DNA from: Candidatus Nomurabacteria bacterium
Lineage (GTDB): Bacteria; Patescibacteriota; Minisyncoccia; Phycocordibacterales; CALRBL01
Direction: 5' to 3'
DNA length: 24,173 bases
Assembly (NCBI GenBank): GCA_943354075.1
Contig: CALRBL010000001.1
Coordinates: forward strand, 1 to 24,173
Shown: positions 2,107 through 15,231 of the stretch, piece by piece
Layout of the letters: the number at the start of each line of letters is the position of its first letter
Position numbering within the stretch: position 1 is the first letter of the stretch
The notes under the pieces: generated by a model
What the model was told of the DNA's origin: nothing
What the model saw: only the letters and a program-made list of their open reading frames with translations
Database searches by the model: none
Made by a program: the position numbers and the translations under genes

Positions 2107-2667
2107 ATGATTATCATCGGCATTACAGGACATATCGGCGCAGGAAAAGGCACGGTGGTAGATTATCTCACGAAGACAAAAGGGTTGAAGCATTACTCAG
2201 CGAGAACCTTCATCACCAAGGAAGTCGAGAAGCGGGGGTTGCCGGTGGATCGCGACAACATGACAAAAGTATCGAATGAGTTGCGAGAGGAACACTCTCC
2301 GAGTTACATTATCGAATCTTTATATCACTCAGCCAAAGCAAAAGGAGAAGATTGTATTATCGAATCCATTCGCACCGTCGGTGAAGTAGAAGCGCTTCGC
2401 GCGATTGGGCATTTCCATCTTTTTGCAATAACTGCCGACCTCCCTCTCCGCTATGACCGTATTGTCTTGCGCGGCAACGAGACCGACAAGATTTCTTTCG
2501 ATACCTTCGCCGAACAGAACAAACGTGAAGCAACATCAACAGATCTTCACAAACAAAATATCGATGCATGCATGACAAAAGCCGATGTCGTCTTCAACAA
2601 CAACGGCACAATCGAAGAGCTTCACGAGGAGATCGAAAATGCGATGAAGGAGTTGGTGTTGGTGTAA
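2107..2667 (+). CDS. P-loop NMP-kinase-like protein (dephospho-CoA/adenylate kinase-like fold)
   Basis: IIGITGHIGAGKGT Walker A, IIESIR, R-x3-RG lid, ADVVFNNNGT. Start 2107 has TATATT 6 nt upstream; the ORF-track extension from 1906 is antisense to dsbB. Confidence 0.8.
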   Translation: MIIIGITGHIGAGKGTVVDYLTKTKGLKHYSARTFITKEVEKRGLPVDRDNMTKVSNELREEHSPSYIIESLYHSAKAKGEDCIIESIRTVGEVEALRAIGHFHLFAITADLPLRYDRIVLRGNETDKISFDTFAEQNKREATSTDLHKQNIDACMTKADVVFNNNGTIEELHEEIENAMKELVLV

Positions 2668-2671
2668 AACT

Positions 2672-3079
2672 TTATATCGTAAAATACCTTTTTAAAGCTT
2701 CGAAAAAACTTGAACCGTCGTCTACTTCCTTATAATTATTCTTATTTACAAAGCGATATGAATCGTGTTCATCACTTAGTTTAATTTCTCCCGAAACATA
2801 GCTACATTTGTATCCGACAATAAATACTTTCTTTCCTTCATTCCTATGTCCTACTGGATAATCTGAGTACCACGTAAAAAAGGGAGCACCAACTTCTATC
2901 TCGATACTCGTCTCTTCTCTCACTTCGCGCTTTAACGCCTCTTCGAAATTGGTCTCTCCCATCTGCACCTTCCCTCCAGGAAAATCCAATCCCTCCATCG
3001 GATCGTTTAATATTAAAATGTTACCGTCTTTCTCAAGGAAGGCTTTCTGACAGACATAGAACAGTGCGTCTTCTTTCAT
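2672..3079 (-). CDS. NUDIX hydrolase
   Basis: FPGGKVQMGETNFEEALKREVREET Nudix box, plus LSDEH. Confidence 0.9.
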   Translation of the reverse strand: MKEDALFYVCQKAFLEKDGNILILNDPMEGLDFPGGKVQMGETNFEEALKREVREETSIEIEVGAPFFTWYSDYPVGHRNEGKKVFIVGYKCSYVSGEIKLSDEHDSYRFVNKNNYKEVDDGSSFFEALKRYFTI

Positions 3080-3108
3080 AGGGGGAGTATATCAGAATCC
3101 AAAATTTG

Positions 3109-3180
3109 GGCGACTAGAGAGAATCGAACTCTCGAATTTGGCACCACAAACCAATGTTTTACCACTAAACTATAGTCGCC
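3109..3180 (-). tRNA. tRNA-His(GUG) with genomic G-1; CCA not encoded
   Basis: Minus strand G-GCGACTA...TTGGT-TTGTGGT-GCCAA...GAGAG-TTCGATT-CTCTC-TAGTCGC-C folds as a cloverleaf. Confidence 0.95.
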
Positions 3181-3596
3181 ATACCCTGCAAAATCAGCAC
3201 CTTACTGAACTTTTGCTTGCTTACACTATCATGATGTACCAGATGATGGCAATTGTGGCAAAGCCAGGCTAGATTTTCTATACTCACATTGGTATGGTCT
3301 TGATCAACATGATGCACAGCTAAAACTCGCACATCTTTCTCTTTACACATTAAACAAACTTGTGAAATAGAGCTGCCGAGTAAGATCTTTCTGTATCTTG
3401 AATAACCATCTTTCCAATTTTTATGTCTATCTCCTGCATACTGTGTATTTCTCCATTTTGTCTGACATGACTTAGAGCAAAAATACTTTTTACTTTTAGA
3501 ACGTTTAATCTGGGTTAGTGTTTTATAGATTTCTTTTGAGCAGGAATAGCACTCTATGAAAACACCTGTTTTACAATATATTCTTTGTATGCTCAT
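3165..3596 (-). CDS. Zn-finger HNH endonuclease-like protein (stop inside tRNA-His)
   Basis: CYSC..FCSKSC, CLMC, HHVDQDHTNVSIENLAWLCHNCHHLVH; ATGA overlap with the upstream paralog. Confidence 0.85.
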   Translation of the reverse strand: MSIQRIYCKTGVFIECYSCSKEIYKTLTQIKRSKSKKYFCSKSCQTKWRNTQYAGDRHKNWKDGYSRYRKILLGSSISQVCLMCKEKDVRVLAVHHVDQDHTNVSIENLAWLCHNCHHLVHHDSVSKQKFSKVLILQGMATIV

Positions 3597-4084
3597 ATTT
3601 TTGATAATAATTCCCTATTAACTTCTTGGTAATGATGGACTAAAAAGTGGCAATTGTAGCAAAGCCACGTTAAATTACTAATTGAGTTATTCTTTCTATT
3701 CCAATCTACATGATGCGCAACTAAAATTTTAGTATTATCCTTCGTACACAGAAGACACGAAGGAACTCCACCCTTTCGTAATAAAATATTTTTATAGGCA
3801 AATTCTCCATTTTTCCAATTTCCATGACCAGCTTCTCTCTGCTGAGGATTAAGCCAATTTAGATTACAGGCATGTGAACAAAAATAATTCTTACTCTTGG
3901 ATCTATTAAGATCTCTTAGTGATTTATATATTTGCTTAGAACAGACAGTACACTTTACAAGGCTTCCTTTTCTTCTACCCACATCACTACATTTTCTTGA
4001 ACAACAAATACCAACTCCACGTTTCAACCACGATGGTTTAGCATAAAATTTATTTAGACAAGTTTTGCATAAAATCTGTGACAT
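3593..4084 (-). CDS. Zn-finger HNH endonuclease-like protein
   Basis: CKTC..CCSRKC, CTVC..FCSHAC, CLLC, HHVDWNRKNNSISNLTWLCYNCHFLVH; TAAAAT (4091-4096) 6 nt upstream. Confidence 0.87.
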   Translation of the reverse strand: MSQILCKTCLNKFYAKPSWLKRGVGICCSRKCSDVGRRKGSLVKCTVCSKQIYKSLRDLNRSKSKNYFCSHACNLNWLNPQQREAGHGNWKNGEFAYKNILLRKGGVPSCLLCTKDNTKILVAHHVDWNRKNNSISNLTWLCYNCHFLVHHYQEVNRELLSKI

Positions 4085-4121
4085 CTTCCAATTTTACCAA
4101 ATAAAATATCATCGAGACAAC

Positions 4122-4151
4122 AAAATAACCCAACATACACTGGGTTATTTT
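4122..4151. terminator. Intrinsic terminator downstream of tRNA-Leu (probably bidirectional)
   Basis: Perfect 11-bp inverted repeat AAAATAACCCA-8 nt-TGGGTTATTTT. Confidence 0.7.
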
Positions 4152-4167
4152 ATCTTTTCTTTATTTG

Positions 4168-4250
4168 TGCGCGAGAGAGGACTTGCACCTCCACGCCCTT
4201 ACGGGCACACCCACCTCAAGGGTGCTTGGCTACTGTTACAACACTCGCGC
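4168..4250 (-). tRNA. tRNA-Leu(GAG), long variable arm
   Basis: GCGCGAG/CTCGCGC acceptor, CACCC-TTGAGGT-GGGTG, variable arm GCCC-GTAA-GGGC, T arm GGAGG-TGCAAGT-CCTCT. Confidence 0.92.
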
Positions 4251-4280
4251 ATGACGGCCAGTATAGGCCAAACCTTTCTT

Positions 4281-4754
4281 TTATTCAATAACCTCCAAAA
4301 GGAGATCAAAACGATAATCAGTATCACCAATCTTTCCCGGAACCGCAGGATACGGACTCACCTTCTCGAGAGTGATCTTAGTGCTTCCTACATAAAAGGA
4401 AGTTCCCTCTTCAACATCTTTTGAAGTGACGTGTTCACCTTCGAGTGAATAAATACTCAAAGAGACTACCGCCCTTCCCGCTTGGATACATTGCACACTC
4501 TCGGGACATCGACTGTCTTCCTTGATAGCAGAAGGCTCAATCAAAATATCATTGTATGCGATACGTTCACGAAAAGATGCGGTCACCTTCTTGCTTCCCG
4601 GGGTCACCACAGCATCAGGAACCACACTGTCGGTAGACGTAGCGATGACAACAGGAACGTTTTCAGGTACCGCTTTCGGCGGATTAATGAGGATTGTCAG
4701 TAAAATGATGAGGAGTGCGATGAGTGCTACGAGAATGAAAAGATGTTTTTTCAT
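4281..4754 (-). CDS. Hypothetical exported/anchored protein with DSRCP-x3-QC motif
   Basis: N-terminal hydrophobic helix, Cys pair EDSRCPESVQCIQAG, TAATG overlap with rplS. Confidence 0.7.
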   Translation of the reverse strand: MKKHLFILVALIALLIILLTILINPPKAVPENVPVVIATSTDSVVPDAVVTPGSKKVTASFRERIAYNDILIEPSAIKEDSRCPESVQCIQAGRAVVSLSIYSLEGEHVTSKDVEEGTSFYVGSTKITLEKVSPYPAVPGKIGDTDYRFDLLLEVIE

Positions 4755-5188
4755 TATTCAACAGAAGCTTCGGCAGGAGCGGCGGCGACAGCAGCAACTG
4801 CTTTAACAGTCTTTGCATTTCGCATCTGACGGCTGATTTCTTTAGCAGCTTTGTCACGGATGTAGTAGAGCTTGGCTCGGCGAACCTTAGCGCTTCGTAC
4901 CACTTCGATCTTGTCGATCATTGGAGAGTAAAGTGGGAAAATTCGTTCTACTCCTACTCCTTCAGTAACTTTTCGTACAGTGAAAGTAGCTCCAGCTTCG
5001 GTGCCATGCTTTCGTGCAAGAATAAGACCTTCAAAGATCTGAAGTCGGATCTTTCCCTTTTCATTGATGATCTGGTGAACCTTTACTACATCTCCGGAAC
5101 GGAAAGTAAGCGCCTTTCGTTCTTCAGGGTTAATAACGTTCAATTTGACTGCCTTTACGTGTGCTTCTTTTTTAGGTTTTCCTGCCAT
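4754..5188 (-). CDS. rplS: 50S ribosomal protein L19
   Basis: FRSGDVVKVH, QIFEG, TFTVRK..GVGVERIFPLYSP, KVRRAKLYYIR. Confidence 0.98.
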   Translation of the reverse strand: MAGKPKKEAHVKAVKLNVINPEERKALTFRSGDVVKVHQIINEKGKIRLQIFEGLILARKHGTEAGATFTVRKVTEGVGVERIFPLYSPMIDKIEVVRSAKVRRAKLYYIRDKAAKEISRQMRNAKTVKAVAAVAAAPAEASVE

Positions 5189-5218
5189 ATATATGTAAAT
5201 TAAGTGACTTGGACTTTA

Positions 5219-5971
5219 TCACACGAGCTTGGAAAGAGCAAATGTGAAGTCATCAGGATAGGGGGCTTCTATAGTGACTTCGTTGTTTTCCATGTCGGTA
5301 AAGGTAATTTCCCTAGAATGAAGGGCGAGGCGCTTGAAACCAAGAAGAGGTTCCCGTTTTGGGGCATACAAAGGATCGGCGACCAAAGGATGGTTGATAG
5401 CCTTAAAATGGACACGGATCTGGTGGGTACGCCCGGTCAAAGGAGATACTTCGATGAGTGTCACGTCCGTTGCAAGATTCTCTGTATCGAGCCGGTTCAA
5501 CACCTTAAAATGCGTCACTGCGTCTCGAGTCTCTCCCCTGCCTCCACGCTGTGCCGACCACAGACGAAAATCTTTTCGAGAACGAGCGATAGGACGATCG
5601 ATAACACCATCGTCTTCTTTAATAATTCCATATACAAACGCATGATATTTCTTTTCGATTGATCGATCTTGAAACTGTCGCTTCAAATGATTGAACCCTT
5701 CCTGAGTAAGAGCAATAAGCATCACACCAGACGTGTCGCGGTCCAAACGATGCACAATACCAGGACGCTTGATGGGCATCTTAGCAGTATCAGCAAATAC
5801 GATAGGCTCCCCCACTTCTGCCGCCTGCGGAAAGTGTTCGGTAACCCAATCCGAAAGAGTCACTTCTTCGGTGCGACCATCACTATGCACAACCAAACCC
5901 GCCGGCTTGTTGATGGCGAGGATGTGGGAGTCTTGATGGAGGATGGTGATTTTATTCTTCTTTGAAGACAT
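5219..5971 (-). CDS. RluA-family pseudouridine synthase
   Basis: INKPAGLVVH, GIVHRLDRDTSG (catalytic Asp), TGRTHQIRVH, DPLY, LALH; no S4 domain. Confidence 0.95.
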   Translation of the reverse strand: MSSKKNKITILHQDSHILAINKPAGLVVHSDGRTEEVTLSDWVTEHFPQAAEVGEPIVFADTAKMPIKRPGIVHRLDRDTSGVMLIALTQEGFNHLKRQFQDRSIEKKYHAFVYGIIKEDDGVIDRPIARSRKDFRLWSAQRGGRGETRDAVTHFKVLNRLDTENLATDVTLIEVSPLTGRTHQIRVHFKAINHPLVADPLYAPKREPLLGFKRLALHSREITFTDMENNEVTIEAPYPDDFTFALSKLV

Positions 5972-5984
5972 ATGTTGCTACCAT

Positions 5985-6021
5985 AACAGAAAAGGGCCTG
6001 CACATCCATGTGCAGGCCCTT
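5985..6021 (-). terminator. Intrinsic terminator of the ClpP-like gene
   Basis: Perfect inverted repeat AAGGGCCTGCACAT/ATGTGCAGGCCCTT (5992-6021), followed on the minus strand by TTCTGTT. Confidence 0.75.
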
Positions 6022-6562
6022 ACAACACTTCATCCGCCAATTCCGCCGTAATCGCTTGTTCCCAAGTGAAGCTGGTATCCCCTTTGTCAGCGAGGATATG
6101 AGCAACCTGCTCATCAGTGAGTTTGGTTCGCAATTTCAGCAATGCAGCTTTTTTCTTATTAAGAACAAGTAACCGTCGATATGCCTTACGAGGAATCCTC
6201 CCTTCAGAATCGAGATGGGCCGAAGAAAGCGAGAGTTGAATCGGATGGATCTTTATCCTAAATCCTTCGGTCAAAGGAACTAATCTCTTCTTGCAAGAGA
6301 TAAAGACATAGGCGGCTGCAGAAGCAAGGAGTTCTCCCTTCGCTTTTGCAACCACTTGCTTCTTACTCGCAAGAATAAGATCGATGAGTTCGAACGCCTT
6401 TGAAGGATCCCCTCCGCGACAATATCCGAACTCAAAGATAACCTCATCACCTTTCGCATCTCGAAACCTTTCGATGATCTCTCGAAACTGATCAGCTGAA
6501 GTCAGTTCCGTCGTAGTATCAGCACTTTCGTCGTGCCGCCCTATCAGAATAGTCGTTTTCAT
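6020..6562 (-). CDS. Divergent ClpP-like serine peptidase
   Basis: CRGGD (cf. SPGG), LASAAA (Ser), IKIHP (His) and GDTSFTWEQAITAELADEVL (cf. DRFLSAPEAVEYGLVD) occur in ClpP order; purine-rich AGAAAGGGG upstream. Confidence 0.7.
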   Translation of the reverse strand: MKTTILIGRHDESADTTTELTSADQFREIIERFRDAKGDEVIFEFGYCRGGDPSKAFELIDLILASKKQVVAKAKGELLASAAAYVFISCKKRLVPLTEGFRIKIHPIQLSLSSAHLDSEGRIPRKAYRRLLVLNKKKAALLKLRTKLTDEQVAHILADKGDTSFTWEQAITAELADEVL

Positions 6563-6602
6563 CTTTACCCCTTTCTAAGGTTGATTGTTGATTTTTTACA
6601 GT

Positions 6603-6617
6603 AAGTGTGTCACACTT
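6603..6617. promoter_or_regulatory. Operator-like palindrome between divergent genes
   Basis: AAGTGTG-T-CACACTT, a perfect 7-1-7 dyad. Confidence 0.4.
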
Positions 6618-6688
6618 CCACACTGAACCTAGCATACATTGTGCTGGGGGACAACAACACAACAAAACAAAACAAAGAAGAAAGAAGT

Positions 6689-6886
6689 ATGCTAAAAAGT
6701 AACCTGACACCGATCCGTACCCAACGAGCCCTTGAAATAGCCATGGGAACTCGCCCCTGGGGAGCCCCGCCAAGTCTCATCGGGTGCGCACCACTGTTCA
6801 CCTCGGAAGACGACCTCGGCGTCAAGCTCACCTCCTCGGTGGAACCGAGGTCAGCAAAAAAGCGCAAATCGCGCAAAAAGAAGTAG
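6689..6886 (+). CDS. Small hypothetical protein (65 aa) with Lys/Arg-rich tail
   Basis: ATG follows a C/A-rich leader; ends SAKKRKSRKKK; a plus-strand terminator follows. No family recognised. Confidence 0.4.
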   Translation: MLKSNLTPIRTQRALEIAMGTRPWGAPPSLIGCAPLFTSEDDLGVKLTSSVEPRSAKKRKSRKKK

Positions 6887-6905
6887 CCTCGGCTACGACC
6901 CATCC

Positions 6906-6950
6906 AACCGCAGTCACCCGCCCCCGGCGAGCGACTGCGGTTTTTTTCTT
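6906..6950 (+). terminator. Intrinsic terminator
   Basis: AACCGCAGTC...GACTGCGGTT stem with inner CGCC/GGCG pairing, then TTTTTTTCTT. Confidence 0.7.
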
Positions 6951-6973
6951 TCCTTATTTTTACCGAAAATCTG

Positions 6974-7046
6974 TGCGCGATGCAGGACTCGAACCTGCGA
7001 CCTTCTCAGTGTAAATGAGTTGCTCTACCAACTGAGCTAATCGCGC
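6974..7046 (-). tRNA. tRNA-Val(UAC)
   Basis: GCGCGAT/ATCGCGC, GCTC-AGTTGGTA-GAGC, loop TTTACAC, GCAGG-TTCGAGT-CCTGC. Confidence 0.95.
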
Positions 7047-7084
7047 TTGAAACTCTTCGAACGTTTTTCTTTATATCATACTTA

Positions 7085-7159
7085 TGGTGCCCCCGCTAGG
7101 AATCGAACCTAGAATAACGGCTTAGAAGTCCGCAGTTATATCCATTTAACTACAGGGGC
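7085..7159 (-). tRNA. tRNA-Arg(UCU), CCA encoded
   Basis: GCCCCTG/CGGGGGC-A-CCA, loop CTTCTAA, CTAGG-TTCGATT-CCTAG. Confidence 0.95.
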
Positions 7160-7164
7160 ATTGG

Positions 7165-7194
7165 GTACAACATCGGTTGTACAAAGCGATCATA
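7165..7194 (-). promoter_or_regulatory. Putative -10 box and 5' leader hairpin of the tRNA-Arg/tRNA-Val transcript
   Basis: TATGAT (7189-7194), 6 nt, then GTACAAC-CGAT-GTTGTAC hairpin (7182-7165), 5 nt before the tRNA. Confidence 0.5.
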
Positions 7195-7199
7195 ACGGA

Positions 7200-7439
7200 T
7201 TACTGTCGATTCTCAAAGAAAGCAGAAATACGATCCACGCGCTTAATGGTGGATTCACCATCCTCCGAAGCATTTCCTCCAACCGATGAACTTTCTCCAC
7301 TTTTTCCTAAAGAGAAGAAGAGATGCGTGCTCACACCGATCACTGCAAGAACAAGTATAGTAAATACGATCATAAGACGCTTCCAATCACGATGAGGATG
7401 TATAGGATTCCATGAAAAGTGAATGTGTTTTTGATTCAT
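7200..7439 (-). CDS. Small single-TM protein at the end of the pilMNO operon
   Basis: Starts 1 nt after the pilO-like stop; PHRDW followed by a TM helix. Confidence 0.65.
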   Translation of the reverse strand: MNQKHIHFSWNPIHPHRDWKRLMIVFTILVLAVIGVSTHLFFSLGKSGESSSVGGNASEDGESTIKRVDRISAFFENRQ

Positions 7440-7440
7440 A

Positions 7441-7929
7441 TTATTCTGTGGTTAAAACAGGAACCGAAAGTGTGAATGATCCTTCCCATCCGGAAGTAAA
7501 CATCACTCGTGATAATACTAGAGGATATTTTGATCGTTCAAAGCGTGCCAAAAGTGTATTAAGATTTTCAAACGATCCATTAGCTTCGATAACCATACTG
7601 AGCATCTTGATGGGACTCGATCCATCAGAAACACTCTCACTCAAAGAAAGTGTATCGCATGAAAGTGAGAGCTCTGCGCAGGCAGATTCGATCGACGAAA
7701 CAAACTCTGCCTGTTCTCCATCTTTTATGAAATACGAAGAAAGCTTTCCTCGAGCTTCCCCTTCTTCTTTGATAAGATTATCAGCATTTTTAATTTCTCC
7801 GGCAAAGTTATGTCGCTTCTCCCCCATCTTGATAAGAGAATAGAAAAGATACGCATAGAGTGCACCGAGAAGTACCACACTACCCGCGAGAGTGATGAGA
7901 GTGATTGTAGTTGGTGATAATTTTTTCAT
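7441..7929 (-). CDS. Type IV pilus PilO-like protein
   Basis: N-terminal TM plus coiled region; FVSSIE..., EANGSFENLNTLLARFE (cf. GxYxxLxxFLxxLE); follows pilM and pilN. Confidence 0.7.
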   Translation of the reverse strand: MKKLSPTTITLITLAGSVVLLGALYAYLFYSLIKMGEKRHNFAGEIKNADNLIKEEGEARGKLSSYFIKDGEQAEFVSSIESACAELSLSCDTLSLSESVSDGSSPIKMLSMVIEANGSFENLNTLLARFERSKYPLVLSRVMFTSGWEGSFTLSVPVLTTE

Positions 7930-7933
7930 ATAG

Positions 7934-8467
7934 TTATGGTAGTGCTATCTGAATAGTAAACGGAGCATCGACACTCTTTGCAATATTATCGATGGGAAGC
8001 GAAGCATTCTTAAATTCTTTCTGTGTACGAAGAGTGGAATGGAATGAGATGAGACTCGCACGTGTCGCCGCTTTACCCCTGATCGTCACTTGCTTATCAA
8101 CAATTTCAATCGCTTCTATTACTATGCCGTCATTTTTTTTGGCAAAAATATCGCTGATGATCTTCCCTGCCGGATAGGTTGCTTTCATTTCGGAAACACG
8201 CACTTCGAGATAATCAACTAAGACTTTGTTCGATGCGGAAAGTCTGGCAGCTTCATCGATCGAAGCTTTCGAATTCTTCTGTTCAGCTTCTTGCTTCTTC
8301 TCTTCCAAATTGTTTATCTCCGAATTCTGACTTACATATGAAGGAAAGAGTCCGACCCCCGCGATAACAAGTAGAATACACAAGAAAGAAACAATGGTAA
8401 CAGAAAGTCGAAGATTGTATTCTTTGATCAAAATCTTTTTTTCTTCCTGTGGTAATAGATTAAGCAT
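7934..8467 (-). CDS. pilN: Type IV pilus PilN-like protein
   Basis: MLNLLP N-terminus, TM helix, VTIRGKA, F-x-N-A-x-L region; follows pilM. Confidence 0.8.
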   Translation of the reverse strand: MLNLLPQEEKKILIKEYNLRLSVTIVSFLCILLVIAGVGLFPSYVSQNSEINNLEEKKQEAEQKNSKASIDEAARLSASNKVLVDYLEVRVSEMKATYPAGKIISDIFAKKNDGIVIEAIEIVDKQVTIRGKAATRASLISFHSTLRTQKEFKNASLPIDNIAKSVDAPFTIQIALP

Positions 8468-8476
8468 AGTTTTGTA

Positions 8477-9547
8477 TTATTCGTTTTCAGGGAGTGCAAG
8501 TCCAATTGCAGTACCGAAATTAATTGCCATCGTAAGTGGAACAGGTGGCACATATTCCTCAACAGACGCAATATTCGCCCACACGTTACCCGCCTCAATC
8601 GGCACATGAAGCGACTGCGCAAGATATTCTTTGAATCCCAACGTAAGCGCTTCTTTACCAGCAAGAATAATTTTCTGAATGGATTCAGTTGCATCTACAC
8701 TGACACGATGTTTGTTCCAATATATGTATACTTTTTCCATCTCCTGACGGAAAGCAGATGCCGTACTAATGAGCGCAGATAATACTTCATTGTCATCGGT
8801 ACGAGTAAATCCTTTTGATTGCTTGAGCTTTTCAGCTTCTTCCACACTTAGAGAAAATTGTTTTTGAAGTGCTGTCACGAAATCAATTGACCCAATAGGA
8901 ACTGTTGAAGTGAATTGCACCGCACCCTTACTGATAATAAACACGGTCGTCTTGGTGGTATGAATATTAACAATCAGATACGTATTCTGATCACCACGAG
9001 TAACCAGTGCTCTCGATAATCCTTGTGCTTCGATGAGAAAAGAAACAGGAGTAAGACCACACTCATGAAAGAATGTGATGTACGCATTGATCACCTCAAG
9101 AGGAAGCACGGTCACGGCAACTTTTACAAAACCTTCTTTGGTACTATCACCGATGAGACGATAATCAAAAATAACATCTGCACCGGAAAGAGGTACATTT
9201 TCCTCCAGAGAAAATTCGATCGAGCTTCTCATACTTGTTTCCGTACCAAATTCGATCTCAGTATCAAAAAGATATGCCTTGTCTTCAGGTAAAGAAGCCT
9301 TGATGTATTCGAGTTTGTATTCCTTCTTCCACTTTTTAAGAATTTCTTTTGCCTCTTTGTGATCTCCTTCTGCGATAAGAAATGGCTCTGTGAGAGTGGC
9401 TTCAGCATACTTCCCTACTTCGAGGCGTGATCGATCGGTGATCTCTATCATACGAATAGCGAGAGGAGAAATATCTATACCAACCGACGCAAGGTCTAGG
9501 AATTTTGGTGCGGGAAAATATTTTGAGAAAAAGATATGCGCTGACAT
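8477..9547 (-). CDS. pilM: Type IV pilus assembly protein PilM (actin-like)
   Basis: VGIDIS, VPLS..DVIFDY, IEAQGLSR, PIGSIDF, ILAGKEA, AIGLAL. Confidence 0.9.
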   Translation of the reverse strand: MSAHIFFSKYFPAPKFLDLASVGIDISPLAIRMIEITDRSRLEVGKYAEATLTEPFLIAEGDHKEAKEILKKWKKEYKLEYIKASLPEDKAYLFDTEIEFGTETSMRSSIEFSLEENVPLSGADVIFDYRLIGDSTKEGFVKVAVTVLPLEVINAYITFFHECGLTPVSFLIEAQGLSRALVTRGDQNTYLIVNIHTTKTTVFIISKGAVQFTSTVPIGSIDFVTALQKQFSLSVEEAEKLKQSKGFTRTDDNEVLSALISTASAFRQEMEKVYIYWNKHRVSVDATESIQKIILAGKEALTLGFKEYLAQSLHVPIEAGNVWANIASVEEYVPPVPLTMAINFGTAIGLALPENE

Positions 9548-9572
9548 CTCTTAAATTATATCACAGAGCGTA

Positions 9573-9902
9573 CTAGGAAAGACGACTACCTGAAGCAATA
9601 GGAGAAGTAGGTTCGATGAGAGAAAAGTTTCCTTCAGTATCAGAAACAGCCATGATCATACCGTTGCTTTCAAAACCTCGAATGGTACGTGGCTCAAGAT
9701 TGGTAACAAAAGGAAATTTCTTTCCGACAAGTGTTTGAGGATCGGGAAAATGTATCGCGATACCAGAGAGGATCTGACGTGGAGCTTCTTCTTTGAAATC
9801 CACCGTGAATCTGATGAGCTTGTCTGCACCTTCTACTTTTTCAGCAGTGAGAATCTCTCCAATCTTTATTTCTACCTTTTTGAAATCGTCTATATTGATC
9901 AT
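9573..9902 (-). CDS. Stand-alone tRNA-binding OB-fold protein (MetG C-terminal/Trbp111/CsaA family)
   Basis: INIDDFKKVEIKIGEI, GADKL, RQILSGI, NLEPRTIRGFESNGMI. Confidence 0.9.
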   Translation of the reverse strand: MINIDDFKKVEIKIGEILTAEKVEGADKLIRFTVDFKEEAPRQILSGIAIHFPDPQTLVGKKFPFVTNLEPRTIRGFESNGMIMAVSDTEGNFSLIEPTSPIASGSRLS

Positions 9903-10297
9903 GCGACAAGTATATCGTTATTTTTTCTGTCTAAAAAGCTCTTGAGAATGAGTGCTGCTGCAGAAGCATGAGTCTTCTCTCCCCCGCCCTGAATATGGCG
10001 TGCTTCGACGGAAGTCATGAACTCGGGTTCAAAATGTACCGGCATCCCCGCTTTGTCTGCAAGCTCTTCTGCAAAAAGACGTGCTTTTTTCATGATGGGA
10101 TTATCTACTCCTTCAAAATTCTTTGATTCACCAATGACGATCTCGGACACCTTCTTTTCGGAGACAATCGACAATACGTCGTCGATAAGTCCCGCCCCGC
10201 CCATGAGAGTGGCCTGTGGGAACGCCATGGTGCCATCATCATTCGACACACTGATACCAACATGCTTTTCGCCAAAATCGATGCCGAGGTATTTCAT
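9899..10297 (-). CDS. ruvX: YqgF/RuvX family nuclease
   Basis: MKYLGIDFGEKHVGISVS, IVIG, EFMTSVEA, ASAAALILKSFLD. True start 10297 has TACTAT 6 nt upstream; the longer ORF-track start is antisense to the HNH gene. Confidence 0.92.
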   Translation of the reverse strand: MKYLGIDFGEKHVGISVSNDDGTMAFPQATLMGGAGLIDDVLSIVSEKKVSEIVIGESKNFEGVDNPIMKKARLFAEELADKAGMPVHFEPEFMTSVEARHIQGGGEKTHASAAALILKSFLDRKNNDILVA

Positions 10298-10339
10298 GCG
10301 TCCATAGTATGCGGAAACACAGATTGATACAATAGCAGA

Positions 10340-10828
10340 ATGTCTGAACAATATATCAGAAAACCTAATACACAATGTAGAATATGCAAAAAACCAATCT
10401 ACCGAAGACCTTGCCAAATAATGCAAGGTGGAGTATTTTGTGGAGTAGTCTGCTACGGTAATTCTAATAGAAAAGAAACTCCATGCCTCGTCTGTGGCAA
10501 ACCAATCATGGCTAGTTTTAATAAGAAGACCTGTAGCAGAAGCTGTGCAAACATTCATAGAGCCGGCATTACCTACAAAAACAACAGACCACACGATAAA
10601 GTAAAGTATCAAAGGGGCCTGAAAGTAAGGCTGTTGGATGATAGAGGAGAAAAATGTGCGCGCTGCGAATATGCAAAAATCGAGATATTGCAGATACATC
10701 ATAAGGATAGGGATAGGGAAAATAATGAGCTATCCAATCTGGAACTTATTTGCCCCAACTGTCATTATGAAGAACATTTTTTAGAAAAAAGTTGGTTAAA
10801 AAAACGGAGGAGTGGCTCGAGAGGTTGA
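10340..10828 (+). CDS. Zn-finger HNH endonuclease-like protein (stop inside tRNA-Ser)
   Basis: CRIC..FCGVVC, CLVC..TCSRSC, CARC, QIHHKDRDRENNELSNLELICPNCHYEEH; TACAAT 6 nt upstream. Confidence 0.88.
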   Translation: MSEQYIRKPNTQCRICKKPIYRRPCQIMQGGVFCGVVCYGNSNRKETPCLVCGKPIMASFNKKTCSRSCANIHRAGITYKNNRPHDKVKYQRGLKVRLLDDRGEKCARCEYAKIEILQIHHKDRDRENNELSNLELICPNCHYEEHFLEKSWLKKRRSGSRG

Positions 10829-10893
10829 TGGCACCGCACTTGAAATGCGGCATCCGGGAAACTGGATCGTGAGTTCGAATCTCACCTCCTCCG
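10806..10893 (+). tRNA. tRNA-Ser(UGA)
   Basis: GGAGGAG/CTCCTCC-G, CCGCA-CTTGAAA-TGCGG, long variable arm ATCCGG-GAAA-CTGGAT, GTGAG-TTCGAAT-CTCAC. Confidence 0.95.
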
Positions 10894-10937
10894 CACAGTA
10901 ATACTATCGGGTTGATTGAACATCAGATTGAATGGAG

Positions 10938-10964
10938 AACGCAAGGTAAAACCTAGCGTTTTTT
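10938..10964 (+). terminator. Probable terminator after tRNA-Ser
   Basis: AACGC-A-AGGT-AAA-ACCT-A-GCGTT followed by TTTT. Confidence 0.55.
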
Positions 10965-10976
10965 CATTTAGTGAGC

Positions 10977-11026
10977 AGTTCTGAAGTAGGAAACAAAGAA
11001 AATGCAGTTTTAAGCACTTCAGAACT
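10977..11026. repeat. 11-bp inverted repeat with 28-nt spacer
   Basis: AGTTCTGAAGT (10977-10987) and ACTTCAGAACT (11016-11026). Confidence 0.6.
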
Positions 11027-11050
11027 TGTTAAATCTACTTTCTTAAAAAG

Positions 11051-11112
11051 TGGACAGAGGTTGAAATTAGTGTAATCTACCCCTGAACCTCAACCCACCT
11101 GAAAGGAGGTGA
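11051..11112 (+). promoter_or_regulatory. Putative sigma70-like promoter and strong SD of the XRE gene
   Basis: TGGACA-16 nt-TAATCT (11051-11078); AAGGAGGTGA (11103-11112) just before ATG 11116. Confidence 0.55.
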
Positions 11113-11115
11113 AAA

Positions 11116-11496
11116 ATGAAAGAGTATCTTCTACATGACACATTGGGTCAGTACCTGTGCAATCTACGAACGTGTGCTGGCTTATCCCAAACCGAACTGG
11201 CAAGCAAAATCCGTCCGACTCACAAAAACGGAAACAAGTTTGTCTCTCGAATGGAAAAAGATGAGCAAACTCCAACCGCAGAAGAATTGGTCAAGATCGC
11301 CGAAGCAGTTGGATGCGACAAGGACATGCTACTGGAGGCAAGCCATTACTTTGCTCAAGGTAACAGTGCAGACGACAAGATCGACCTTCGCCCTCTCCTT
11401 ACCAAGCTTGGGCAGGCTGCAGACCTCGTCACTCCCCAGCACCTCGCAGTCGCGATTAAGCATTTCGTTGCCCTCAGTAAAGTCGGAGGGGTATGA
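11116..11496 (+). CDS. XRE/HTH_3-family transcriptional regulator
   Basis: LGQYLCNLRTCAGLSQTELA...VSRMEKDEQTPTAEELVKIAEAVG pattern, strong SD, downstream terminator. Confidence 0.85.
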   Translation: MKEYLLHDTLGQYLCNLRTCAGLSQTELASKIRPTHKNGNKFVSRMEKDEQTPTAEELVKIAEAVGCDKDMLLEASHYFAQGNSADDKIDLRPLLTKLGQAADLVTPQHLAVAIKHFVALSKVGGV

Positions 11497-11504
11497 TCCC
11501 TCAG

Positions 11505-11539
11505 AACGCTCCGGTTTCGGCTGGGGCGTTTTTTATTTT
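11505..11539 (+). terminator. Intrinsic terminator (UUCG loop)
   Basis: AACGCTCCGGT-TTCG-GCTGGGGCGTT (11 bp with G:U pairs), then TTTTATTTT. Confidence 0.8.
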
Positions 11540-11651
11540 ATTCAGATATTTACCAAGAGAAAGTAAGTTCTCCTTAATTATTTTCCAATCCACAGTTCTG
11601 AACGCATCTAACCACTCCCGCAAAATATGACTTTCCTTGTATAATATGACT

Positions 11652-12152
11652 ATGGAAATCCCCGAAGTAAAACTAAACAGAGCAAAAGAACTCATTCACA
11701 CAAGTAGGCATATTGCACTTGCTACCACAAACGCAGACGGTTCACCTCACAATAGTCCTGTTAGATTTTTCTATGATGAAAAACTTGAAAATATATATTG
11801 GGGTTCAAATACCGAAGCGTTGCATTCTCAAAACATATTAAGAGCGGGTCAGATATTTGCGGTTTTATTCGACAGAATAGAATTTGGTGGTGTGTATATA
11901 AAATGTGAAGATGGTCATATACTTGAAGGCTATGAATTAGAAGCAGGACTTCAGATTACTAACGCTTCTAGGACAAAGGAGGGACAACAAAAAATTACCC
12001 CAGATTATTATTCAGCAGGAAGTGTCCAAAAAATGTGGTCAGCAAAAATTACTAATTTGTGGATAAATATGCCCATGAGAGATGAAAATGGCTATATATT
12101 AAGAGATGAGAGAGTGGAATTGGAAAGAAGTATTTTACTAAAAAATATTTAA
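11652..12152 (+). CDS. Pyridoxamine 5'-phosphate oxidase-like (FMN-binding split barrel) protein
   Basis: HIALATTNADGSPHNSPVRF, YWGS...HSQNI. Start 11652 has TATAAT 6 nt upstream. Confidence 0.8.
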   Translation: MEIPEVKLNRAKELIHTSRHIALATTNADGSPHNSPVRFFYDEKLENIYWGSNTEALHSQNILRAGQIFAVLFDRIEFGGVYIKCEDGHILEGYELEAGLQITNASRTKEGQQKITPDYYSAGSVQKMWSAKITNLWINMPMRDENGYILRDERVELERSILLKNI

Positions 12153-12212
12153 ATATAAATAGACAGATACGTATATTTGACCACTAAAACGAGGAGGGGT
12201 ATTATATTACAT

Positions 12213-12485
12213 ATGTCTGATCTCCAATTTGAAGAAAATAATGTTTCAGCATTTCAATCAAGAATAATCCTTGGTAAGGCAGTAACACCCAAGATGATCA
12301 CCTTTCTCATCAATAGGGGTATTGTCAAAGATCAGAAAACTGCCGGAAAATTTCTACTTGGTATATGTATAATTTTTATACTTGCCTCTATTTTAATACT
12401 TGCCGTATTTGTTTTTGATGTAAATCTTACAAAAAAAGATACCCGCAACGGTCCAGGAATAGGACCCCTAAAAGAAAGAATATGA
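12213..12485 (+). CDS. Hypothetical single-TM protein
   Basis: Start MSDLQFEE has TATTAT 7 nt upstream; one TM helix; ATGA overlap with the pilin. Confidence 0.65.
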   Translation: MSDLQFEENNVSAFQSRIILGKAVTPKMITFLINRGIVKDQKTAGKFLLGICIIFILASILILAVFVFDVNLTKKDTRNGPGIGPLKERI

Positions 12486-12958
12486 GAAAAGGATTCACAT
12501 TAATAGAGCTGTTGGTTGTCATCTCCATTATCGGACTTTTATCAAGTATCGTATTAGCATCACTGAATACAGCAAGGCAAAAAGCTGAGATCGCAAAGGT
12601 AGCATCAGAAATGAAAAGTATCCAATTAGCGCTTGAATTGTATTATGACAGCAATAATGAATACCCTAATAATCCGCTATCAGATGTAAATCCATATAGC
12701 ACCGGAAATTTCACTTCTGGACTCGATCCTTTGGTCACTAGCGGATATCTTCCACTGGTTCCGACGTGGGACACAAATAAATATGAATACTTCTATTTTG
12801 TAGGTGACATACCTTTACTCGGTTATACTTGCGGAGGAGTGACCCCTACGTCTTACCTACTCGTCATAATAGATGTGGTAAACGCTTCAGTATTTCCTTT
12901 AGGTGTACTTGATGATGGTGTTGGTGGTCTTACAGGATACTACTGCATCTCTTCCTAG
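12482..12958 (+). CDS. Type IV pilin/pseudopilin (class III signal peptide)
   Basis: MRKG|FTLIELLVVISIIGLLSSIVLASL (G-1/F+1/E+5); C-terminal Cys pair. Confidence 0.93.
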   Translation: MRKGFTLIELLVVISIIGLLSSIVLASLNTARQKAEIAKVASEMKSIQLALELYYDSNNEYPNNPLSDVNPYSTGNFTSGLDPLVTSGYLPLVPTWDTNKYEYFYFVGDIPLLGYTCGGVTPTSYLLVIIDVVNASVFPLGVLDDGVGGLTGYYCISS

Positions 12959-12992
12959 TAGCTTACTCAGTAGCACGTGATATAATTCTTTT

Positions 12993-13466
12993 ATGGAATC
13001 AATGATCTCCTGGAAAGCATACGAGTACATTCACGAGCCTAAAAGTGCTGATTGGTATTGGGCACTTGGCATCATCGCACTTGCTGTCGCGGGAGCTGCG
13101 ATAATTTTCGGAAACTATATTTTCGCAATTCTCGTTCTCATCGTCGCGATTTCTCTTGCCATCCACGCACATCATCACTCCCCTCGTCTTGTCGACTTTC
13201 AACTGAATGAACGAGGAGTAAAGATCGATCATATTTTCTATCCCTACAAAACACTCGAATCATTTGATATCGAAACCCACGAGACCGAGATCGGAACTTT
13301 TGCTAAAATCTTCATCAAGTCCAAAAAAACCATGATGCCCCTCATCGTGATCCCTATAGCCGAGGTTCACCCTGAAGATGTGCGCGAATATCTTTCGATC
13401 TTTCTCGAAGAAGGTGAGCATACTGAAAGCGTGGGACATCGTCTGCTTGAATGGCTCGGATTTTAG
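12993..13466 (+). CDS. Conserved hypothetical 2-TM protein with C-terminal beta-rich (bPH-like) domain
   Basis: W-x-AYEY...DWYW, two TM helices, then FQLNERGVKID..YPY..F; TATAAT 6 nt upstream. Confidence 0.75.
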   Translation: MESMISWKAYEYIHEPKSADWYWALGIIALAVAGAAIIFGNYIFAILVLIVAISLAIHAHHHSPRLVDFQLNERGVKIDHIFYPYKTLESFDIETHETEIGTFAKIFIKSKKTMMPLIVIPIAEVHPEDVREYLSIFLEEGEHTESVGHRLLEWLGF

Positions 13467-13519
13467 TTTTATTTGATTTTTATATTGATACCCGTGCTCG
13501 CGGGTTATAAAATGAAGGG

Positions 13520-14194
13520 ATGGTGAGGAAGGAATTAAGAAGACAAGCCGAAAAATTGAGAGATGATGGGAAATCCTATCAAGATATCTCGCGTGAATTA
13601 GGTGTGGCAAAAAGTACGCTTTCGTATTGGTTTAATACTACCTCTCATTACTTGGACACATCAGAGAAACAACTGGAACATCTTAAAAGAGCTCGTATTT
13701 TGGCTCTAGAGGCAATACAAGATAAACAAACAAAGAAGAGGCTGGACTTGGAAAAAAGTGTTACTTTAGATTTTAGTGCTCGTGATATTAATTCACTCTT
13801 TACGAAGAAAATTGCTCTTTCTATGCTGTATTGGGCAGAAGGAACAAAGCACAAAAGAGCCGGAGGTCTAACCTTCACAAATACCGATCCCATGCTTATA
13901 AAAACATTTGTCTCACTTCTTAAAACCGTATTCGATATTGATCTATCAAAAATAAGATTGCGATTAGCCATACATAGTTACCACAATGAAAAAGAGTGTA
14001 AAATATTCTGGTCAAACCTTACAGGAATCGAGTTGGATCAATTCAATAAAACATACTTGAAACCAAGAAGTCTTACGAAGAAATTCCGGCAAAACTTCAT
14101 GGGAATCTGCTTTGTATATTATCCAAATGGTGGTATAAGAAAGGAGATATTAGAAATCGGCAGACAATATTGCAGCCACATATCGCTCCCGTAG
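13520..14194 (+). CDS. HTH + LAGLIDADG-like protein (stop inside tRNA-Arg)
   Basis: N-terminal HTH GKSYQDISRELGVAKSTLSYW; LAGLIDADG-like ALSMLYWAEG, then LTFTNTD..LIKTF; TAAAAT 6 nt upstream. Confidence 0.75.
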   Translation: MVRKELRRQAEKLRDDGKSYQDISRELGVAKSTLSYWFNTTSHYLDTSEKQLEHLKRARILALEAIQDKQTKKRLDLEKSVTLDFSARDINSLFTKKIALSMLYWAEGTKHKRAGGLTFTNTDPMLIKTFVSLLKTVFDIDLSKIRLRLAIHSYHNEKECKIFWSNLTGIELDQFNKTYLKPRSLTKKFRQNFMGICFVYYPNGGIRKEILEIGRQYCSHISLP

Positions 14195-14256
14195 TTAAAT
14201 GGATATAATAGTAGCTTGCGGAGTTACTGTTCCAAGTTCGATTCTTGGCGGGAGCA
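14185..14256 (+). tRNA. tRNA-Arg(GCG)
   Basis: GCTCCCG/CGGGAGC-A, D arm GTTA-AATGGATA-TAAT (like the Arg-UCU tRNA here), GTAGC-TTGCGGA-GTTAC, CCAAG-TTCGATT-CTTGG. Confidence 0.9.
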
Positions 14257-14302
14257 CATGATTACATTCAATAGGAGTATGTGGACTATATAAAATAGAC
14301 CA

Positions 14303-14646: not shown

Positions 14647-15231
14647 ATGATATCCCGTATTTCAGGCGCCCTCATACAGCTCGAGCTCAAGTTCGCCATC
14701 ATCGACGTGGGAGGAATTGGCTACAAAGTATACGTCGGAGGCGAGTCTTTGGAGGCACTTGCCGGAAATCTTGGTCAGAATGTCTCTCTTTTCACCTACC
14801 TCGCTGTTCGAGAGAACGCCCTCGACCTCTATGGTTTCAAAAATCAAGAAACCCTCTCGATGTTCGAGATGCTCATCACTGTCTCAGGTATTGGACCAAA
14901 ATCCGCTATGGGCATCTTAGCAGTCGCATCCGAACACACCATCCGTGAAGCCATCGTAAACGAAGACACTTCATACCTCACCAAAGTCTCAGGCATTGGA
15001 AAGAAAAATGCCGAAAAGATCGTCCTCGAACTCAAAGGTAAGTTCAAAGATGACGATTACACCATCGGTTCCGGAAAAGATGTTACCAAAGAAGCACTTG
15101 CTGTGGATGCTCTCAAGTCACTTGGTTTCGACGAACGCGAAGCTCGTGATGCGGTGAAAAAAATGGACAAAGAACTCTCTGCGGAAGAAATGATCAGAGT
15201 TGCTCTTCGGGAAATAGGTACGAAACGATAG
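14647..15231 (+). CDS. ruvA: Holliday junction branch migration protein RuvA
   Basis: MISRISG, DVGGIGY, LYGF, VSGIGPKSA, KVSGIGKKNAEKIVLELKGK, ALKSLGF. Confidence 0.97.
   Translation: MISRISGALIQLELKFAIIDVGGIGYKVYVGGESLEALAGNLGQNVSLFTYLAVRENALDLYGFKNQETLSMFEMLITVSGIGPKSAMGILAVASEHTIREAIVNEDTSYLTKVSGIGKKNAEKIVLELKGKFKDDDYTIGSGKDVTKEALAVDALKSLGFDEREARDAVKKMDKELSAEEMIRVALREIGTKR

Follow-up and report, generated by a model that had tools for sequence, protein, structure and literature searches.

Why should the reading frames of nuclease genes end inside tRNA genes, so that their stop codons are tRNA nucleotides? This question is raised by a stretch of 24,173 nucleotides (nt) from a Candidatus Nomurabacteria bacterium (assembly GCA_943354075.1, contig CALRBL010000001.1, positions 1 to 24,173), hereafter the window, in which open reading frames (ORFs) run into the genes for tRNA-His, tRNA-Ser and tRNA-Arg and terminate there. 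This stretch makes up contig C1 of a metagenome-assembled genome (MAG; label G000) with a size of 448 kb, 62 contigs, and 70% completeness; ARAGORN detects seven tRNAs in the window. An original prediction made from the window alone held that tRNA maturation would remove the stop codons of these messages, that each transcript could give either full-length protein or a mature tRNA plus a nonstop mRNA, and that this choice could limit a toxic nuclease or modulate the tRNA supply. We favor another answer, to which we assign a probability of about 0.72: the ORFs are free-standing homing-endonuclease cassettes lodged in tRNA 5' leaders, and the stop codon in the tRNA is a passive back-up.

Nuclease Genes That Run into tRNA Genes

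The anatomy of the three junctions agrees with the original prediction. Both the ORF list and the raw sequence place the stop codons among tRNA nucleotides, namely TAG at nucleotides 13-15 of tRNA-His, TGA in the D-loop of tRNA-Ser, and TAG at U8-A9-G10 of tRNA-Arg (Table 1). The proximal of two ORFs stacked on tRNA-His ends with ATG GCG ACT ATA GTT TAG; the G of the Met codon, at position 3180 in the raw sequence, is G-1 of the tRNA, and the final four residues (A-T-I-V) come from the acceptor stem. The Ser-linked ORF ends with CGG AGG AGT GGC TCG AGA GGT TGA and the Arg-linked ORF with TCG CTC CCG TAG. The C-termini (MATIV, GSRG, and ISLP) and the predicted RNase P cuts (3181, 10805, and 14184) were also given correctly, and the assignment of the ORFs to nucleases was borne out by a Pfam HNH match (Ser), by HNH homology and motif (His), and by a LAGLIDADG motif together with a LAGLIDADG-like predicted fold (Arg). 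This overlap pattern is not due to chance: genome-wide, a nuclease-domain ORF of 143-359 amino acids (aa) runs into five of the 26 tRNAs of the MAG, and 50 of 58 homologs elsewhere are docked on a tRNA.

Table 1. Coordinates of the nuclease ORFs, their tRNAs and candidate promoter elements. Positions are those of the window unless another contig is named; HTH, helix-turn-helix.
Feature	Position	Strand	Remarks
tRNA-His(GTG)	3108..3179	-	ARAGORN; G-1 at 3180 is the last base of the ORF Met codon
Proximal zinc-finger HNH endonuclease ORF, 143 aa	3165..3596	-	Stop TAG = tRNA-His nt 13-15
Distal HNH paralog, 163 aa	3593..4084	-	ATGA overlap with the proximal ORF 3165-3596
-10 box TACAAT, TG upstream	10328..10333	+	6 nt before the ATG of the Ser-linked ORF 10340-10828; sequence
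Zinc-finger HNH endonuclease ORF, 162 aa	10340..10828	+	Stop TGA = tRNA-Ser nt 21-23, D-loop
tRNA-Ser(UGA)	10806..10894	+	ARAGORN
Promoter-like TTGATA-17-TAAAAT	13485..13513	+	Ends 6 nt before the ATG of the Arg-linked ORF 13520-14194
HTH + single-motif LAGLIDADG protein, 224 aa	13520..14194	+	Stop TAG = U8-A9-G10 of tRNA-Arg
tRNA-Arg(GCG)	14185..14257	+	ARAGORN
Double-motif LAGLIDADG_3 ORF, 244 aa	contig C25 (locus L074) 3020-3754	+	Profile above cut-off
HTH + LAGLIDADG_3 ORF, 359 aa	contig C46 (locus L075) 2545-3624	-	Profile above cut-off

Longer overlaps occur on other contigs of the MAG. The double-motif LAGLIDADG_3 ORF on contig C25 reads through the whole of tRNA-Leu(UAG) (3654-3737) and stops 17 nt past the tRNA end; a TACAAT hexamer directly abuts nucleotide +1 of this tRNA. 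On contig C46, the LAGLIDADG_3 ORF stops about 54-56 nt into tRNA-Ser(CGA) (2508-2600), which is the longest overlap with an in-tRNA stop in the analysis. Two further frames, on contigs C7 and C28, are long and also cross tRNAs, but were judged to be spurious.

Docking on tRNA 5' Ends throughout Patescibacteria

The conserved feature of these genes is docking on a tRNA, rather than overlap with it. Homologs were searched for in 401 genomes sampled across Patescibacteria; 23 of them have members of the HNH family and 91 have members of the HTH-LAGLIDADG family, of which a single genome can carry up to seven. When the distance to the first base of a same-strand tRNA was measured for a non-redundant set of 58 ORFs, 50 had such a tRNA between -37 and +40 nt away, and two of the eight undocked homologs are distal members of tandem pairs. 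The original prediction had seen the three nuclease-tRNA overlaps correctly, but missed the phylum-wide docking of several nuclease classes.

Each lineage keeps to one tRNA. On a maximum likelihood tree, 30 LAGLIDADG proteins are arranged by tRNA without exception, with nine identities forming one clade each (including Trp, Ala(GGC), Gly(GCC), Arg(GCG), Lys(CUU), Ile(UAU), Val(GAC), and Gln(UUG)); the nine label changes on this tree are the minimum possible, which was matched in none of 200 shuffles. HNH relatives are likewise grouped by tRNA, in this case Ser(UGA), His, Thr, and Leu(UAA). A scan with the Arg-linked protein as single query retrieved eight loci, and its closest database relatives, found in MAGs of Nomura-, Yanofsky-, Kaiser-, and Saccharibacteria, are without exception adjacent to tRNA-Arg(GCG); relatives of the Arg(GCG) type stem from five candidate phyla and are all located at this tRNA. 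Three genomes of other families or classes encode orthologs of the Ser-linked HNH protein (60-65% identity), likewise 5' of tRNA-Ser(UGA). The tandem HNH pair 5' of tRNA-His recurs in the same-order genome G324 (L014; 170 and 163 aa), where the proximal ORF overlaps tRNA-His by 15 nt. Four nuclease architectures were found in the tRNA 5' position: zinc-finger HNH, HTH-LAGLIDADG, double-motif LAGLIDADG_3, and GIY-YIG.

Three single loci add to this picture. The stacked HNH genes before tRNA-His in the window are two diverged paralogs. A GIY-YIG ORF of 111 aa in the same-order genome G337 (L067, 1599-1934, minus strand) ends 10 nt before tRNA-Ser(UGA), so that a third class of nuclease is found at the site taken by the HNH gene in the window. 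In a Kaiserbacteria MAG (L080; JACRFI010000006.1, 1501-2243), a relative of the Arg-linked protein (43% identity) and tRNA-Arg(GCG) are convergent, with 2 nt between the end of the relative and the 3' end of the tRNA; here the tRNA pairing survives a flipped orientation, which points to a link at the level of the DNA rather than of the transcript.

Presence and Absence of the Genes at Syntenic Sites

The same tRNA genes also occur without nuclease ORFs. Contig C3 of G324 is syntenic with the window and carries the HNH pair with tRNA-His, followed by L19, tRNA-Ser, tRNA-Arg, and PolA. Its Arg site is empty, consisting of a 157-aa gene, 52 nt, tRNA-Arg(GCG), and a 194-aa gene, with no nuclease ORF; these flanking genes are orthologs of the window genes 12993-13466 and 14647-15231, between which the window has an additional ORF of 675 nt. 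Similarly, tRNA-Ser(UGA) lacks a nuclease ORF in four genomes of the same order (G143, G211, G178, and G324).

In the genomes that share the Ser-linked HNH protein at 60-65% identity, PolA is only 42-50% identical to its counterpart in the window, and L19, which was not found in the third genome (G241), is 45-51% identical in the other two. It would be odd for a selfish gene to be more similar between classes than PolA and L19 unless it had moved, and this similarity is the one indirect hint of cleavage of, and gene conversion into, the cassette-less allele. Site polymorphism and a single target locus per lineage, as are characteristic of a free-standing mobile endonuclease, are both present here, and the genes would be expected to home.

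The possibility that the cassette travels together with its own tRNA found no support for this window, as its tRNA-Ser is nearer to the cassette-less tRNAs of the same order (72-81%) than to those of the cassette-bearing genomes (52-73%), and tRNA-Arg alleles with and without the nuclease gene show no diagnostic difference. Most cassette-free relatives have the uniform D-arm sequence GGCAGAGTGGTCGATTGC, from which the D-arms of HNH-bearing tRNA-Ser(UGA) alleles deviate (window compared with L007-L009 and L065-L069), and the window allele has a 1-nt insertion in this comparison. An immunity signature in the 5' half of tRNA-Ser was considered on account of these unusual D-arms and set aside, since four to five sequences are not interpretable.

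Is the Stop Codon Kept in the tRNA?

Among 50 ORF-tRNA pairs, the stop codon lies inside the tRNA in 26 and before or flush with it in 24, seven of which have a gap of 0; the in-tRNA stop is therefore not conserved among homologs. Both states occur within seven of the eight tRNA-specific clades that have at least two members. The commonest overlaps are 10 and 15 nt, corresponding to U8-A9-G10 and nucleotides 13-15. In the wider Arg(GCG) clade, six of seven same-strand members overlap their tRNA; the overlap is 10 or 22-23 nt, and the base at position 9 (A or C) decides which. The tails encoded by the tRNA, such as ATIV, EALV, ETLV, and VAFV, follow the respective acceptor stem and are not conserved.

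The reading frame used by the overlapping ORFs is a biased choice. These ORFs stop after a median of 15 tRNA nucleotides, compared with a median of 65 nt, often the whole tRNA, in the other two frames (Mann-Whitney p = 5e-6, with pairs taken without phylogenetic correction). The simplest reading of this bias is that long tRNA-encoded tails are selected against and only early-stop frames are tolerated. For the stop itself, a back-up model is simplest, according to which an ORF can dispense with its own stop codon only where the tRNA offers an early one.

This bears directly on the regulatory idea of the original prediction, namely that the stop is kept in the tRNA so that RNase P and translation termination compete, which would throttle a toxic nuclease or gate the tRNA supply. 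Much of the anatomy would suit such a device. The stops are indeed tRNA nucleotides, about half of the homologs and six of the seven same-strand Arg(GCG) members stop in the tRNA, and a terminating ribosome would cover the RNase P site in nearly all pairs, as the stop is inside the tRNA or at most 8 nt from it in 43 of 50. Moreover, the MAG encodes transfer-messenger RNA (tmRNA) and SmpB, most genomes of the class have RNase P RNA, and no proximal -10 box precedes two of the three tRNAs. However, the trait flips in seven of eight clades, 24 of the 50 homologs stop before the tRNA or flush with it, and the tRNA-encoded tails are unconserved, while selection against long junk tails explains the frame bias equally well. 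Nor are the two outcomes exclusive, since translation of a transcript can precede its processing. The refuting case named with the original prediction, termination of most homologs before the tRNA, does not apply, as the homologs are split about evenly, and the idea of an evolved regulator is neither refuted nor supported. Given how readily the stop has shifted into or out of the tRNA in evolution, we take the borrowed stop for a probable side effect rather than a conserved control device, and we regard competition between RNase P and the ribosome as an improbable reason for its position. The caveat already attached to the original prediction, that readthrough ORFs may end passively at stop triplets offered by conserved tRNA positions, fits the lability of the stop best.

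Transcription, RNase P and Trans-Translation

In the docking model, the tRNAs would be released from the transcripts of the nuclease genes, and the candidate promoters of the window are compatible with this. In addition to the elements before the Ser- and Arg-linked ORFs (Table 1), the ATG of the proximal His ORF follows a -10-like TATTAT at a distance of 7 nt, and that of the distal one follows a promoter-like TTGTCT-18-TAAAAT at 6 nt. The distance of 6-7 nt between -10 box and ATG suggests leaderless mRNAs. No TAnnnT hexamer is found in the 50 nt upstream of tRNA-Ser(UGA) or tRNA-Arg(GCG), so these two tRNAs most likely depend on the promoter before the ORF; no terminator-like site lies between any window ORF and its tRNA. 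By comparison, 10 of the 21 unoccupied tRNAs of the MAG have a TAnnnT hexamer at -13 to -19, and at the empty tRNA-Ser sites of G143 and G324 a -10-like box is located 7 nt before the tRNA itself. On this analysis, co-transcription and release by RNase P are likely for the Ser and Arg units.

The -10-like boxes of the unoccupied tRNAs fall into two distance classes, at about -13 to -19 (10 tRNAs) and about -34 to -38 (approximately six tRNAs), according to which many tRNAs would have leaders of only a few nucleotides.

As the stop codons consist of tRNA nucleotides, cleavage by RNase P would leave a message without a stop. This premise of the original prediction stands, but the strict alternative between protein and tRNA that it derived does not, because the choice would be only kinetic. 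The machinery that would deal with such messages is encoded in the MAG: contig C32 carries a tmRNA (3780-4191; 79 bits against an Rfam cut-off of 47), for which ARAGORN made no tmRNA call, and SmpB (5017-5436; 146 bits). Non-stop mRNAs after RNase P cleavage are thus plausible, given the predicted tmRNA and SmpB genes. Of the three components named in the original prediction, ssrA and smpB could be located, both on C32, whereas rnpB was not among the matches in the MAG.

From these elements we propose the following sequence of events. The three ORFs and the fourth one stacked on tRNA-His would be free-standing homing-endonuclease genes of Patescibacteria-wide families, with each cassette lineage tied to one particular tRNA gene. 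The cassette would occupy the tRNA 5' leader, with the ORF filling the space up to nucleotide +1, and the tRNA would be made from the ORF transcript and freed by RNase P. This release would render the insertion harmless, as splicing does for intron-borne endonuclease genes. The in-tRNA stop would be a by-product of the flush junction: with an early stop at U8-A9-G10, N13-A14-R15, or in the D-loop, an ORF would need none of its own, and where the tRNA provides no early in-frame stop, an own one would be kept just before it. Window messages that are cut before the last ribosome terminates would become non-stop mRNAs handled by tmRNA-SmpB, and their decay would probably trim the nuclease yield somewhat, as a consequence and not as conserved control. 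A broader proposition appears doubtful to us, namely that tRNA 5' leaders are a general hiding place in Patescibacteria for at least four nuclease architectures, that RNase P plays the role of splicing, and that, where the stop lies in the tRNA, competition between RNase P and the ribosome, together with tmRNA, governs both nuclease dose and tRNA release.

Several observations weigh against mobile cassettes with RNase P-released tRNAs. Neither the RNA (RF00010) nor the protein component (PF00825) of RNase P was found in the 70%-complete MAG; RF00010 is present in 38 of 41 genomes of the class, and RNase P RNAs of the candidate phyla radiation (CPR) are divergent (PMC8172020). The convergent tRNA at the Kaiserbacteria locus implies that residence in the leader is not obligatory. 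Promoter-like hexamers exist inside the His ORF (TAAGGT at -25, and TTGCCA-16-GATAGT ending at 3225), and tRNA-His may be transcribed on its own. Sigma-70-like promoter matches in the region are not enriched, at 29 compared with 24.3 ± 5.7 in shuffled sequences, so that the promoter arguments rest on position. The branches in the protein tree are long, and much of the pattern could be the result of old vertical descent with loss. Furthermore, tRNA-Arg alleles with and without the homing endonuclease gene (HEG) show no consistent difference that would explain self-immunity, and endonuclease activity, mobility, and co-transcription are all predictions from sequence.

Active Nucleases or Domesticated DNA-Binding Proteins?

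The HNH proteins appear to have retained what catalysis requires. The Ser-linked ORF matches the Pfam family HNH (PF01844) with 22.3 bits, just above the cut-off of 21.4, and its motif HHKDRDREN...SNLELICPNCHYEEH, as read from the sequence, contains the catalytic His-Asn-His and the flanking Cys pairs. The His-linked ORFs remain below the Pfam cut-offs, with a best score of 17.7 bits for HNH_3 (PF13392) against 24.8, but both are homologous to the Ser-linked HNH protein (E 1.2e-9 for the proximal and 3.3e-11 for the distal ORF). In the sequence of the proximal ORF, the motif HHVDQDH...N..NL.WLCHNCH (HHVDQDH...N.SIENLAWLCHNCHHLVHH) has the catalytic residues and the flanking Cys pairs intact, and both proteins have extra Cys4 modules in addition to the intact HNH motif.

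The Arg-linked protein is more difficult to classify. Pfam gives only N-terminal HTH families at E <= 0.01 and no LAGLIDADG match, a profile search of the PDB with the family alignment returned HTH proteins only, and Foldseek against the PDB found nothing meaningful for the structural model, with YfiB/OmpA-like matches at a TM-score of 0.27. In the family alignment of 30 members, however, the motifs LYWxEGxK and NSDP are near-invariant, with E107, G108, and K110 conserved in at least 90%. The AlphaFold model has a pLDDT of 92. A VIA-align wide search placed WhiA (Z 7.4), E-DreI (6.9), I-DmoI (6.9), I-Tsp061I (6.0), and TliVMA on top for residues 88-222, with scores that are middling by the tool's own grading; WhiA is the best fold match, aligned to residues 89-220 with a root-mean-square deviation of 3.2 over 91 residues. 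In this model, the C-terminal domain is closest to LAGLIDADG proteins.

The resemblance to WhiA, together with the presence of an HTH domain, could be taken to mean that the proteins are domesticated DNA-binding factors that bind the promoter or gene of their own tRNA, regulate its expression, and are no longer mobile. Such a role would also suit the lineage-specific tRNA pairing, which is very old judging from the long branches, and the missing difference between HEG-bearing and HEG-free tRNA alleles that might suggest target immunity. We nevertheless consider domestication quite unlikely. The distribution is patchy, with empty syntenic sites in genomes of the same order, up to seven copies occur per genome on different tRNAs, and four unrelated nuclease architectures are found at the same position. 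In addition, the acidic residue E107, which corresponds to the metal-binding residue of LAGLIDADG enzymes, is nearly invariant, the HNH catalytic residues are intact, and the HNH protein is better conserved between classes than PolA or L19. The Arg-linked family does share the combination of LAGLIDADG and HTH domains with WhiA, but in WhiA the LAGLIDADG domain is present twice, with degenerate catalytic residues, the HTH domain is C-terminal, and the gene is single-copy and vertically inherited, whereas in the Arg-linked family a single motif has kept its acidic residue, the HTH domain is N-terminal, copies are many, and the distribution is patchy.

That the overlaps are an annotation artefact, caused by wrong ends or starts or by the genetic code, with a coincidental adjacency to tRNAs, is very hard to believe: tRNA-crossing frames on other contigs of the MAG are clearly spurious and TGA is read as a sense codon in some Patescibacteria, but each frame discussed here runs from a start codon, with a -10 box in front of it, to the stop in the tRNA and meets no in-frame stop on the way, and the adjacency recurs in 50 of 58 homologs. 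An alternative code with TGA as sense codon was dropped, since long genes such as that of the 817-aa PolA are intact under translation table 11.

Comparison with Known Systems

In their presence/absence polymorphism and their linkage to tRNAs, the docked genes resemble SegB of phage T4 and other free-standing homing endonucleases of T-even phages, which perform intron-less homing. SegB is encoded among tRNA genes, recognizes a conserved motif of these genes, the T-psi-C stem-loop, and drives the preferential inheritance of itself and the neighboring tRNA region (PMC2330249). It is, however, a GIY-YIG protein from a phage tRNA cluster, and its gene has its own stop and spacing. In the Patescibacteria, the genes are chromosomal and belong to a cellular lineage, each lineage resides at the 5' end of one tRNA, at least four architectures are involved, the ORF often ends inside the tRNA, and homing would be expected by analogy.

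The proposed processing step has a counterpart in secG-leuU of E. coli, where the mRNA and the downstream tRNA form one transcript that RNase P separates by its cut at the tRNA 5' end (PMC2241853); the ORF-tRNA units described here would be processed in the same way. In contrast to these units, secG is a housekeeping gene and not a mobile nuclease, and its stop codon is its own and is separated from leuU by a spacer, so that cleavage does not remove it. A further parallel is the punctuation of animal mitochondrial transcripts. There, as Ojala, Montoya and Attardi reportedly described in 1981, the mRNA 3' ends are set by excision of the tRNAs, with which the reading frames overlap or share a border, and cutting leaves some of the stop codons incomplete. 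Mitochondria complete such a stop by polyadenylation, whereas here cleavage would delete it and trans-translation would deal with the product.

Introns and inteins likewise shelter selfish nuclease genes, at sites that processing takes out of the host product, and LAGLIDADG genes have been described in 16S and 23S rRNA introns and between rRNA genes of the CPR (PMC8172020; PMC10714607). Unlike those, the genes at the tRNAs are associated with neither intron nor intein, and the proposed neutralizing step is the removal of the 5' leader by RNase P. Our literature search retrieved reports on HEGs in rRNA introns and spacers of CPR bacteria, and none on cassettes in tRNA leaders or on the removal of a stop codon by RNase P.

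Significance

For genome annotation, the overlaps between ORFs and tRNAs of the kind described here are real and should not be trimmed. The loci also provide a set of natural nucleases with apparent specificity, each for a different tRNA gene, and a natural test bed in which RNase P, terminating ribosomes, and trans-translation meet on one RNA. If the docking model is true, tRNA 5' processing would be a second way, besides introns and inteins, for a selfish gene to sit cost-free in essential RNA genes, and this would explain why the streamlined genomes of Patescibacteria tolerate up to seven such genes.

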